Part shown: in pieces, positions 17,781-57,716 of the stretch | How the letters are laid out: every line of letters begins with the position of its first letter | How positions within the stretch are numbered: the stretch's first letter is position 1 | Source: Octopus vulgaris | Taxonomy: Eukaryota | Direction: 5' to 3' | Assembly (NCBI GenBank): GCA_951406725.2 | Contig: OX597818.1 | Coordinates: 100,316,001-100,380,000, forward strand | Length of the DNA stretch: 64,000 nucleotides | Notes under the pieces: model-generated | What the model saw: the letters and a program-made list of their open reading frames with translations, nothing else | Told to the model about the DNA's origin: nothing | Databases searched by the model: none | Translations under genes and position numbers: made by a program

Positions 17781-17883
17781 ATATATATATCAATAATACT
17801 ATATTTGTTCCACGTCCTCGCGTTGTTGTGTTTTTTTTGTGTTTTCTTGTTTGGATTAACTTTATATATATATATATATATAT

Positions 17884-24443: not shown

Positions 24444-24487
24444 ACACAACGTTTCAGCTGATATATCCTCCAGCCTTCATCAGGTGT
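24444..24487 (-). ncRNA. Minimal type I hammerhead ribozyme motif
   Basis: Reverse complement ACAC-CTGATGA-A-GGCTG-GAGGATATAT-CAGCT-GAAAC-GT-T-GTGT; canonical core, stem III reduced to palindromic ACGT. Confidence 0.7.
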
Positions 24488-28409: not shown

Positions 28410-28575
28410 GATTTTCTTTCCTCCGCCTTTTTTTTCTGTTAGACTTTCCTCTGTTTCTGAAGAAGAACTTTGCTTGAAACGTTAAACCATCTTTCTTTCC
28501 TTCCTTGAGCGTCTGCTATTACATTACATGTACCACGTCCTCGCGTTGTTGTTTTTGTGTTTGTTCTTTGTTTTC
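28410..28575 (+). mobile_element. PLE-like terminal repeat with minimal hammerhead motif (28453-28487)
   Basis: GTTT-CTGAAGA-A-GAAC-TTT-GCTT-GAAAC-GT-T-AAAC, followed by the CCACGTCCTCGCGTTGTT terminus shared with 17810, 33790, 46160 and 46470. Confidence 0.6.
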
Positions 28576-33749: not shown

Positions 33750-33750
<1 letters not shown>

Positions 33751-33900
33751 AGTTATTCCAAACATGAAAACACAAAGAGGAAACACAACAACGCGAGGAC
33801 GTGGAATAAGTATAGTGTTATTGGACGTTCAGGAAAGGAAAGGAAGAAGAAGGATTTAACGTTATGAGCGGAGCTCTTCGTCAGAAACATAGGAAAAGGA
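33750..33900 (-). mobile_element. PLE-like terminal repeat with degenerate hammerhead (33855-33887)
   Basis: Reverse complement TTT-CTGACGA-A-GAGC-TCC-GCTC-ATAAC(mutated GAAAC)-GT-T-AAA. Confidence 0.55.
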
Positions 33901-46059: not shown

Positions 46060-46106
<47 letters not shown>

Positions 46107-46109
46107 GTA

Positions 46110-46630
46110 TAGTTAATCCAAACATGGACAGGCAAGAAAAAACAACAAAAAACAACAACGCAAGGACGTGGAATAAATGCAGTATTATTGGTGGTGATAA
46201 AAGAGAAAAGTGAAAGTAGAAAGAAGAAATATTAAGGGAGGACGAGAAAAAGTGGAAGAGTCACGGACAAATTGTGATGATTTCCAATCAAGATTAGAGT
46301 GGCGTAATCCGAATGAATCGTAACAGTAATCGGCAGGTATAAGAATTCCAGGAATTCGTTGCTCCAAAGTCAGTCATAAGGCCGGTGTCCGTGTGAGCGT
46401 TGGGTATATATAGTTAATCCAAACATGAACCAGCAAGAAAAAACAACAACAAAAAATAACAACGACTACGCGAGGACGTGGAATAAGTACAGTGATATTG
46501 GACGCTCACGAGAGGAAAGAAAAGAAAGAGGGTTTCACGTTTCGAGCGGAGCTTTTCGTCAGAAATATAGAAAAAGTCCAAAGAAGGGAAGACGGTGAAA
46601 GTAACTCCACAACGATACACACGCGGTCAC
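46110..46630 (-). mobile_element. Two tandem PLE-like terminal fragments; hammerhead motif at 46533-46565
   Basis: Repeated GTTAATCCAAACATG...AACAACG(CG)AGGACGTGGAATAA at 46111 and 46413; reverse complement TTT-CTGACGA-A-AAGC-TCC-GCTC-GAAAC-GT-G-AAA. Confidence 0.6.
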
Positions 46631-46755
46631 ATATTGATATATATGTATATATATATAAAGAAAGTTTGTTTAATGAGGTTGAAGTTATTTCCCATAATGA
46701 AATCGCCCAATGATGGCTTCATATTTCAGAAGGTCATAGAAGGAAATAATCAGAA

Positions 46756-46830
<75 letters not shown>

Positions 46831-46835
<5 letters not shown>

Positions 46836-47575
46836 TAAATTTTAGGGTAGCAAAAAATTCTAGAAAAATTCTCCGCTACCAGCGGTCAAGTGAGAAAGAA
46901 AAGATAGTCAATAGACTATATAATATCTATATAATAAACATTCAAAGATATAAGGGACGGCCATAATAGGACATCCGACTCACTAGAAAGAGCAGCCAAA
47001 CTCCAAACCACTAATAGTTGTAATTCTGAAATGGATAGAGACATAAAAACGTTTACCCTCTCCTTTCTGGACTATGCATAGTTTCGGCAATCTTTTGTAA
47101 ATAAATTAATGTAATTAATTTATTTTCCACTGGCGTTGCCTCGTCAGCAGAAAAGCCAAGGACTAAGATATATACACGAAGCGATGATAAACATGCCTCG
47201 AGTCTATATGCTATAAATTTTCAAAATCCACCACGCTCGTGCGGTTTACTCAGCAGTAAATATAAACTGCCGATTTAATTTCAAAATTAGCCAAAAAATC
47301 ATTAATTGATAAATTTTAGGGTAGCAAAAAATTCTAGAAAAATTCTCCGCTACCAGCGGTCAAATGAGAAAGAAAAAATAGTCAATAGACTATATAATAT
47401 ACATTCAAACATATAAGAGACGGTCATAATAGGACACCCGACTCACTAGAAAGAGCAGCAAAACTCCAAACCATTAATAGTTGTAATTCTGAAATGGAAA
47501 GAGAAATAAAAACGTTTACCCTCTCCTTTCTGGAATATGCATATTTTGGGCAATCTTTTGTAAATAAATTAATTT
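46831..47575 (-). mobile_element. Partial tandem repeat (period ~472 bp) carrying a canonical hammerhead; PLE pLTR/retrozyme-like
   Basis: 46831-47110 is repeated at ~47303-47572; flanked by (TA)n on both sides. Confidence 0.8.
47063..47154 (-). ncRNA. Type I hammerhead ribozyme, canonical core, GUC cleavage site
   Basis: Reverse complement TTTCTG-CTGACGA-GGCAA...TTGCC-GAAA-CTATGCATAG-TC-CAGAAA; all three stems pair; predicted cut between 47070 and 47069. Confidence 0.85.
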
Positions 47576-47582
47576 GATTGTC

Positions 47583-47624
<42 letters not shown>

Positions 47625-47627
<3 letters not shown>

Positions 47628-55239: not shown

Positions 55240-57020
55240 TAGTTTTATTTTTATTTTTATAGCGTGCTTTCACTTCACTACCGAGCGCAGCTCTGTGTGC
55301 CTTGGGTATGTGCTGTGATTTGTTGTGATGCTCTGATGGTTATTGTATGGAAAGTGCTCTGCGTAGGATGTGTGCAGTGCCTAGTAGTGCAATTTTCTGT
55401 ATGTTATATGTGTTTGTAAGTCCTGGTGTTTTTGTTATGTATTTGTCTGAATATTTTTTTATCATGCCTAATGCACCTACTATGATAGGAATTGTTTCTG
55501 TTTTCAGATTCCACATTCTAGTTACCTCTATTTCCAGGTCTTTGTATTTTGAGAGTTTCTCCATTTCTTTTAGAGACACGTTGTCATCTGCCGGTACTGA
55601 TACATCAATTAGAAAGCATTTTTTTTCTTCATGGTCTCTGACAACTATATCTGGTCTGTTGGCCTTAATTTCTCTATCTGTGTGTATCGGCATATCCCAG
55701 AGTATGGTTGCTTTCTCGTTTTCTGTGACCTTTTCTGGTGTGTGCCTATACCATCTTTTTTCTGCTGTTATTCCATAATGTTGGCATAGCTTCCAATGTA
55801 TGTAAGTTCCAACTCTGTCATGTCTGTGAATATATTCCTTCTTAGCCAGGACTGGGCAGCTAGAGATAATATGATTTATTGTTTCTTGTCCATCTCCACA
55901 TATTCTGCAGTTACTTGTAATATTTCTTTTCATTACATGTTTTTGGTAATTTCTGGTGGGGAGGCATTGGTCTTGTGCTGCAATTAAAAATCCCTCTGTT
56001 TCTGCTTTGAGTCCTGAGCTTCTCAACCATTGCTGGGATTTTTCTTTGTCTATTTCTTTTGCGTTTAGTTTAGTCCAGTATTTACCATGAAGGGCTTTTC
56101 TTGCCATCGTTTTATCATGGTTCGTTGCTGTTCTATTTTTAGTTTGGATTTCATTTTTTTTATAGCTTTTGTTGTTTCTTCATCTTCTTCTTCTTCTTCT
56201 TCATGTTTATTAGGTGGTATGATTTCTTGTTTGTATTTGTCAGCTTCCTTAAATACTGAGAACAGTTTTTTGTTTTGCTCGTGTTTTGCCGCTATCTGGA
56301 TCAGTTTTCCTTCCTTCTGAAGTAGATATTTTTGCAGTCCTATGGTGGTTATTTTATAGTAGTTTTCCAGCTGTATAAGGCCTCTACCACCTTCTATACG
56401 TTGTATATATAGTCTTTCTATGTCAGATTTTGGGTGATGCATCCTAGATCCTGTCATTATTTTTCTTGTTTTCCTGTCTATTTTGGTCAGTTCATTTCGT
56501 GTCCAGTTAAGGATATTGTAGCTGTAACTTATAACTGGGACAGCTAAAGTGTTGATACCTATTATCTTGTTTTTAGCATTGAGCTCTGTGTTTAGTATTG
56601 ATCTAACTCGTCTATAATATTCTTTTTTTATTTTCTCTTTCATTTGTGTGTGTTGTGTCTTATCTAGTTCATGGATTCCTAAGTATTTGTAAATTTGGCT
56701 TTGGTCTAATTCTTTTATTTCATTTGCTTCATCTAGTGTGATGTTGTTACTCTTAACTAGTTTTCCTCTTTTCATGGTTACTTTGGCGCATTTTTCTAAT
56801 CCAAATTTCATATCTATTTCTTTGGTAAATCCATGAACTGTCTTTAATAGTGTTTCCAGCTGTTTGTCATTTGCAGCGTATAGTTTTAGGTCATCCATAT
56901 ATAAAAGGTGGCTGATCGTTTTGCCGTAACATTTATATCCGCATCCAGTTCTATTTAGCATATCAAATAGAGGTGACAGTGCCAAGCAGAAAAGGAGTGG
57001 AGAGAGCGTATCTCCCTGGA
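55240..57020 (-). mobile_element. 5'-truncated R4/Dong-type LINE (RT C-half, CCHC finger, restriction-like endonuclease)
   Basis: RGIFQGDTLSPLLF, HLLYMDDLKLY, GGRGL, ETEGFLIAAQDQ, CRICGDGQETINHIISSC, RHDRV, RPDIV, IDVSVP, KLSKY; one 1-bp frameshift at ~56093; (TTC)n(TTA)n tracts on both sides. Confidence 0.93.
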
Positions 57021-57074
57021 ATATTCCTCTTCTTCTTCTTCTTCTTCTTCTTATTATCATTATTATTATTATTA

Positions 57075-57122
<48 letters not shown>

Positions 57123-57438
57123 GCAGTAGTAGTATTAGGGGCAGCAGCAGCAGCAGTTGCTGTAGTAGTAGCTGCTGTTGCTGCTTAGCACTATATCAAG
57201 TCAGAGGTAGTAAAACGATTAACAAAGATTACTTTCTAGCTACTGACATCCTGTCTTTCCTCCATCCCTTTTCATTTCACATAAAGGCATTTCTTATAAA
57301 TGTCAAGGATTGTTGACTGCTATTTCAGACATTTCATTCTGCCGTGTTTATGTTCTTACTGTTGTTGTCGTTTTAGCTGCTATTGTTGTTGCTGTTGTCT
57401 CGTTAACAGCTCGTATCAGATAACGCCTACGATCAAAA

Positions 57439-57716
57439 CGTACATAGGACTATATTATAATGTGTCCTTCAGCAGAGATATGTGGTTTAATAATATCTCG
57501 GTTGTTATTTCTAGCAGATTGACCATCACAATATTTCTTCCTCGCTCAATAACAAAACGGTGAAAATTAATATGGCGTACATAGGACTATATTATAATGT
57601 GTCCTTCAGCAGAGATATGTGGTTTAATAATATCTCGGTTGTTATTTCTAGCAGATAGACCATCACAATATTTCTTCCTCGCTCAATAACAAAACGGTGA
57701 AAATTAATATGGCGTA
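57439..57716. repeat. 137-bp tandem duplication
   Basis: 57439-57575 repeated at 57576-57712 with one visible mismatch; CGTA at both junctions. Confidence 0.9.

Follow-up and report, generated by a model that had tools for sequence, protein, structure and literature searches.

The segment at 46831-47579 of the window (the whole 64-kb stretch of Octopus vulgaris DNA that was analysed) is best explained as a 5'-truncated, partial-tandem copy of a non-autonomous Penelope-like element derivative that carries a hammerhead ribozyme (a non-LTR retrozyme) and was likely inserted into a (TA)n microsatellite, a reading to which we assign a probability of roughly 0.68. As shown in Table 1, the hammerhead lies on the minus strand, where all core nucleotides of the type I motif are present (CUGANGA, GAAA and UH with A15.1-U16.1): CUGACGA occupies 47147-47141, GAA 47085-47083 and C17 position 47070. 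Stem I is formed by 47155-47148 and 47069-47062 (8 bp, one G-U) and continues past a GG/A internal loop into an outer helix of 5 bp, whereas stem II comprises 5 bp between 47140-47136 and 47090-47086. Stem III has 4 bp and a tetraloop as a monomer and 12 bp between two molecules, and the GUC triplet places the predicted cut site between 47070 and 47069. The hairpin of the stem II insert has 12 bp in this copy and 14 bp with the family-majority base at 47126.

Table 1. Coordinates of the hammerhead, the repeat unit and the flanking repeats in the window
Feature	Position	Strand	Basis
Full 474-bp ORF-free unit (5' segment 47304-47117, then 47116-46831)	46831..47304	-	self-comparison, family contigs
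5'-truncated upstream copy; starts at stem II hairpin; ribozyme 3' half only	47305..47579	-	90.6% to 46831-47116
Dead ribozyme half: changed palindrome 47545-47534, G12 to C at 47548	47525..47553	-	sequence
Type I hammerhead motif, inner (8 bp) and outer (5 bp) stem I	47056..47162	-	sequence and fold
Stem II insert, 45 nt: 8x6 internal loop and AU hairpin	47091..47135	-	fold, family contigs
Palindromic stem III, 12 nt	47071..47082 (read 47082-47071)	-	duplex energy
16-bp hairpin ending 15 nt before element 3' end; includes G-U pairs	46846..46880	-	fold; repeated at 47320-47354
(CA)n/(TA)n microsatellite at insertion 3' end, likely target	46755..46832	.	repeat scan; (CA)24+(TA)15
(TA)n microsatellite at insertion 5' end	47583..47626	.	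repeat scan; (TA)22

This hammerhead is the sole match to the canonical descriptor in the 64-kb window. Loose matches occur in 9 of 200 dinucleotide shuffles, and matches with stems of at least 6/5/5 bp occur in none of the 200, which bears out the claim of the sequence-only reading that a complete type I hammerhead with paired stems I and II and a GUC triplet is present. The minus-strand position given there also stands, whereas the end points quoted for it (47154-47063) exceed the 6-bp stem given with them by one base. The Rfam search that had been suggested as a check returns no hammerhead match in 6 kb at E<=1 or in 661 bases at E<=10, probably because of the 45-nt insert in stem II.

The intact ribozyme is contained in a unit with a GC content of 33.7%, and the locus has a layout of 1.6 units. 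The truncated copy is 90.6% identical to 46831-47116 over 286 columns, with 16 mismatches in 275 aligned columns and an 11-nt indel. The recurrence of the ribozyme half is therefore real, whereas the uniform spacing of 472 bp proposed for it gives way to two values separated by the indel, 474 and 463. The changes described earlier for this copy are all found: C15.2 and G16.2 are both altered with the palindrome kept, GAAA is mutated by the change of G12 to C, and the 5' half is missing. The insertion is likewise free of ORFs, its longest ATG-started frame being 42 aa, and lies between (TA)n runs on both sides, as had been noted. From the predicted cut site to the element 3' end there are 240 nt, and in the hairpin near that end 15 of the 16 pairs have probabilities of 0.95-1.0. 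Since only one intact ribozyme is present, the proposed release of a monomer does not hold for this locus in cis. Two consecutive complete hammerheads, by which an 'active' retrozyme is defined in the available part of a recent preprint (Li et al., bioRxiv 10.64898/2026.07.22.740005), are not found here; the second copy lacks the 5' half and G12, which makes the locus a derivative and not an active retrozyme.

The 474-bp unit is an abundant, diverged repeat family. Twenty public runs, which come from 10 studies and carry four organism labels, contain words of the insertion at shares of up to 0.48, and none of them is listed as RNA. For four of the 20 runs, contigs were aligned to one rotated unit, 47013-47475, which makes the ribozyme and the unit junction interior; joints reported as going back at the edges of this stretch only reflect where the unit was cut, and the depth given by the tool over the unit is no copy number. 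Of the three larger runs, which carry three organism labels, two are guessed to be DNA and one is of unknown kind; in them, 1,205, 1,174 and 438 contigs align to one unit and cover 29 of 29 bins, the largest contig class being 90-95% alike, and 1-3% of the contigs continue into unlike sequence. The run guessed to be RNA contributes 44 aligned contigs, also over 29 of 29 bins, which as contigs cannot show ends, strand or circles. One contig of that run has 475 nt, about the length of one unit, of which the last 207 nt align (47013-47228). Exact motif scans for the element give 0 loci in viral contigs, metagenome contigs and prokaryote genomes.

The junction at 47304/47305 is crossed by 10 of the 32 pieces listed, with no step in depth, which indicates that the end of the unit is regularly followed by its start. 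The earlier description of a pLTR- or retrozyme-like repeat unit is thus upheld by an ORF-free family in which the head-to-tail junction recurs in other copies. Tandem arrays of the 474-bp unit elsewhere in the family are suggested, and full arrays only suggested, because the whole unit is spanned by 0 of the contigs listed (32 pieces). Opposite strands are joined in six of 15 joints, two of them at 47303-47311; this is expected because Penelope yields inverted, 5'-truncated copies. Additionally, loose ends of other copies at 47268 and 47303 run into TA-rich flanks, like this copy. Features of Penelope-type insertions are present, namely a 5'-truncated partial tandem, inversions and a microsatellite target.

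The coding part of an autonomous Penelope-like element, an ORF with reverse transcriptase and GIY-YIG domains, is absent from the insertion, and no GIY-YIG domain is found among the 300 frames scanned in the window. The 24 loose ends listed (a further 352 fall outside the listing) reveal neither a link to an ORF nor an autonomous partner. It is nevertheless conceivable, if unlikely, that the unit is the pLTR region of an autonomous Penelope-like element whose truncated insertions outnumber the full copies, with no independent mini-family. Most Penelope insertions are 5'-truncated, pLTRs hold hammerheads, short contigs would hide rare ORF links, and 6.83% of the O. vulgaris genome (190 families) consists of Penelope-like elements according to the available text of PMC13282606, in which ribozymes are not mentioned. 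However, the listed contigs pass from the unit 3' end to the 5' segment and into the ribozyme with no ORF between, and none of the listed loose ends resembles a main exit to other sequence, which favours the non-autonomous derivative.

Depth over 47109-47188, the ribozyme 5' half, is about 5-15x lower than the flanking peaks in all four runs, so that many copies may lack this half or have replaced it. Copies may end at the hairpin or cut site, like the upstream copy, or else the alignment may miss divergent subfamilies there, whose existence is shown by loose ends at 47109 and 47195. This dip, the even depth across the junction and the predicted inactivity of the monomer fold would also suit a satellite-like repeat whose present spread is by tandem amplification of DNA, with the hammerhead kept as a relic. 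Such a history is very unlikely in view of the copy described here, which is a dispersed insertion of 1.6 units in (TA)n with a truncated 5' end, and of other copies, among which inversions occur and ends at 47268 and 47303 adjoin TA-rich sequence. The listed variation also avoids the core.

The variant list holds 39 variable positions in 40 of 118 rows, chosen by support. None of the 39 falls in the 49 nt of the core and stems I-III (hypergeometric P 0.010; P 0.007 when the test is confined to 47061-47191), a test that is soft because the rows were chosen by support and the threshold of 80% contig likeness favours conserved copies. The three variants listed within predicted helices all leave a base pair intact or re-create one: U-G becomes U-A at 47060, G-U becomes A-U at 47347, and at 47126 a base that lengthens the stem II hairpin from 12 to 14 bp accounts for near 100% of the depth in three of the runs and for about half in the remaining one. 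A loose-end consensus of 9 contigs (agreement 0.7) has, by eye, a different AU hairpin at the site of the stem II insert, and one contig is without the hairpin altogether (a 35-nt skip), which indicates that the insert varies while its base is kept.

The double change that keeps the palindrome of the truncated copy is weak evidence for selection, because this copy has lost G12, the change is absent from the 40 of 118 variant rows listed, and palindrome-templated repair is possible and may explain the change as well as selection does. At about 3% divergence, the intact core of the present copy needs no selection, and the locus shows no sign of stronger conservation than the family as a whole. 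This copy, which differs from the family majority by a few percent, is probably a passenger, with no monomer release in cis.

The mobile elements of the window bear on a further alternative, a non-autonomous element moved by a LINE (CR1, RTE or Dong/R4-like) or a Helitron and not by a Penelope-like element, which we consider less likely again. LINE remnants are indeed present (RVT_1 at 107-1081 and 56068-57195), and a 16-bp hairpin stands 15 nt before the 3' end. Helitron non-autonomous elements begin with 5' TC and end in a 3' hairpin followed by CTRR; the unit has the hairpin but neither the 5' TC nor the CTRR end. It also lacks a poly(A) tail and, the TA target aside, any simple-repeat tail, shows no similarity to the LINEs of the window, and its partial tandems, inversions and hammerhead fit Penelope-like elements. 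The least probable proposal, host co-option of the ribozyme within an intron of a gene on the minus strand, draws on the intact core and on the chance that a gene of short exons escapes a frame scan, but the sequence is one of many family copies and no convincing host-gene domain appears in the 300 frames scanned.

The Pfam scan covered 300 of 329 complexity-filtered frames, drawn from 680 stop-to-stop frames of at least 45 aa in the window. It yields LINE domains, a CCCH/Torus domain and two weak matches below the cut-off, and no convincing non-retroelement match in the 300 frames scanned; the candidate host gene with a sense-oriented intronic ribozyme, which had been raised before, thus finds no convincing domain in 300 of the 680 frames. 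On the minus strand, 104-2746 contains the 5' part of an endonuclease-RT LINE and an upstream CCCH/Torus zinc-finger frame (2165-2746); the best of three matches to the endonuclease frame 1071-2333 is an Octopus sinensis protein (57%). A second LINE remnant at 55340-57195 (minus) has RVT_1 and zf-RVT domains, is flanked by (TTA)n/(TTC)n repeats and resembles Dong/R4-type elements. Just to its right, 57439-57716 consists of two 137-bp tandem copies of 99% identity, possibly an effect of assembly or a recent duplication. The SINE-like repeats of the window resemble octopus SINEs.

Minimal hammerhead-like motifs of other families number three in the window, compared with a control mean of 0.44. 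An unrelated partial-tandem element at 46100-46635, between (TA)n runs and about 200 bp from the hammerhead unit, contains a degenerate minimal motif of this kind on the minus strand (core starting at 46562), with a 4-nt palindromic stem III and a GUG triplet. Relatives of this element are located at 17791-17872, 28434-28574 and 33750-33898. Minimal motifs are also present at 24483 (minus; stems I and II of 5 bp each) and 28457 (plus).

Folding predictions were obtained for both strands of the unit and for the hammerhead alone and in pairs. The full unit on the minus strand folds better than 100 of 100 shuffles (z -4.1, compared with z -1.5 for the plus strand), whereas the local 136-nt hammerhead fold does not surpass its shuffles (z -1.1). 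The monomer is predicted to misfold in the full unit, where the probability of stems I and II is 0.05 or less. Across 30 contexts, stems I and II reach 0.73-0.83 in two, both short transcripts ending at 47050, and stay at or below 0.05 in the other 28. The palindrome forms no hairpin alone, and its duplex with a second copy is predicted at -15.9 kcal/mol; two 108-nt copies fold into a double hammerhead at -66.3 kcal/mol, compared with 2 x -26.9 kcal/mol separately. The fold ready for activity costs 5.1 kcal/mol in the full unit, and two such costs are smaller than the duplex gain, which makes a hammerhead that is off as a monomer and on as a dimer plausible as far as equilibrium predictions go. 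The hammerhead is accordingly predicted to cut best as a dimer, and a stem III of 4 bp could also allow monomer cutting during transcription. A candidate pairing of 5 bp between loops I and II (47159-47155 with 47134-47130), which could arise by chance at this length and competes with the outer stem I, could replace the canonical loop-loop interaction; the loose-end subfamily reads GCUAA at this contact, and the pairing would remain.

These properties can be set against those of known systems, as described in the available parts of the papers cited. Metazoan non-LTR retrozymes (PMC7229834; bioRxiv 10.64898/2026.07.22.740005) are alike in being ORF-free, low-GC repeats with a type I hammerhead, arranged head to tail in many copies. 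The unit of 463-474 bp is longer than the 170-400 nt of PMC7229834 and falls within the 51-972 bp of the preprint, in which vertebrate retrozymes are reported as pLTR derivatives (Li et al.), invertebrates are named as untested for retrozyme origin, and one of nine predicted retrozymes cleaved in vitro while eight did not. The mussel retrozyme, of 350-390 bp, is a mollusc example, and retrozyme circles have been reported (Cervera and de la Pena 2020, PMC7229834). Unlike in the metazoan non-LTR retrozymes, stem II of the present hammerhead holds a structured insert of 45 nt, stem III is a palindrome of 12 nt, and the locus has a single intact ribozyme.

The hammerheads of Penelope-like pseudo-LTRs (PMC4209133; PMC8557442) resemble it in being of type I, with a palindromic stem III suited to dimers and a position near the 3' end, which is about 90-430 nt away in Penelope-like elements (PMC8557442); for those of pLTRs a palindromic stem III, dimers and low activity are described (Cervera and de la Pena 2014, PMC4209133). 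Long loops II are known from Selaginella PLE-X1 hammerheads (34 and 29 nt; PMC8557442). The 5' truncation, partial tandem, inversions and (TA)n target seen here are reported for Penelope-like elements as well (Craig et al. 2021, PMC8557442), among which most Chlamys are without hammerheads and one octopus Hydra hammerhead differs from ours. MRC1 of Chlamydomonas is also a short, ORF-less element that forms pLTRs and head-to-tail insertions; it shares 3' sequence with a known autonomous family, whereas no such partner is found here (PMC8557442). A search with 11 short motifs finds no matching element in the published Naiad/Chlamys/Hydra supplement (PMC8557442), in which the Hydra and protein lines were covered in shortened form. 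The proposal that the element is the 'HHR_half_core' of Naiad_Ovul was dropped, the motif searches being negative and the visible Naiad_Obim 3' end being different. Background on cephalopod repeats, hammerhead dimers, palindromic stems III and pseudoknots is given in PMC8967140, PMC6765202, PMC3088659 and PMC10085705. Apart from the octopus Hydra hammerhead of Craig et al., no report of a cephalopod retrozyme was found in the literature, with some supplements, Repbase and Dfam outside the scope of the search.

For the non-autonomous Penelope-like derivative, a life cycle can be proposed from known retrozymes and Penelope elements together with the predicted folds. A single unit would be mostly off, since in the full-unit fold the GAAAC core is covered by an upstream stretch (47165-47155) and CUGACG by the stem II loop (47135-47126). 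Two ribozymes would pair through the palindrome to form a double hammerhead, and read-through transcripts of tandem source copies would be cut at GUC, as in known retrozymes and Penelope elements, into monomers of about 465-475 nt that may be ligated to circles. With reverse transcriptase and endonuclease supplied in trans by a Penelope element, monomers or circles would be reverse-transcribed for more than one unit and inserted at TA, likely into a (TA)n microsatellite; at this locus, synthesis would have ended in the second round, at the stem II hairpin. In a bolder version, which is unlikely, several species of the octopus lineage share a family of ribozyme-made circular RNAs of about 470 nt that Rfam misses owing to the structured insert in stem II; two pairings against the core would keep the ribozyme inactive in the monomer, a palindromic dimer of 12 bp would activate it, and base pairing between the loops would replace the canonical contact.

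Hammerhead-bearing Penelope derivatives are a class already published, and a cephalopod member and the long stem II are modest additions to it; the family opens no new kind of system. The finding probably extends the hammerhead-bearing, non-autonomous Penelope derivatives to a cephalopod. Additionally, neither Rfam nor short-spacer descriptors detect an abundant hammerhead whose stem II is long, which indicates that the counts of hammerheads in animal genomes are underestimates.
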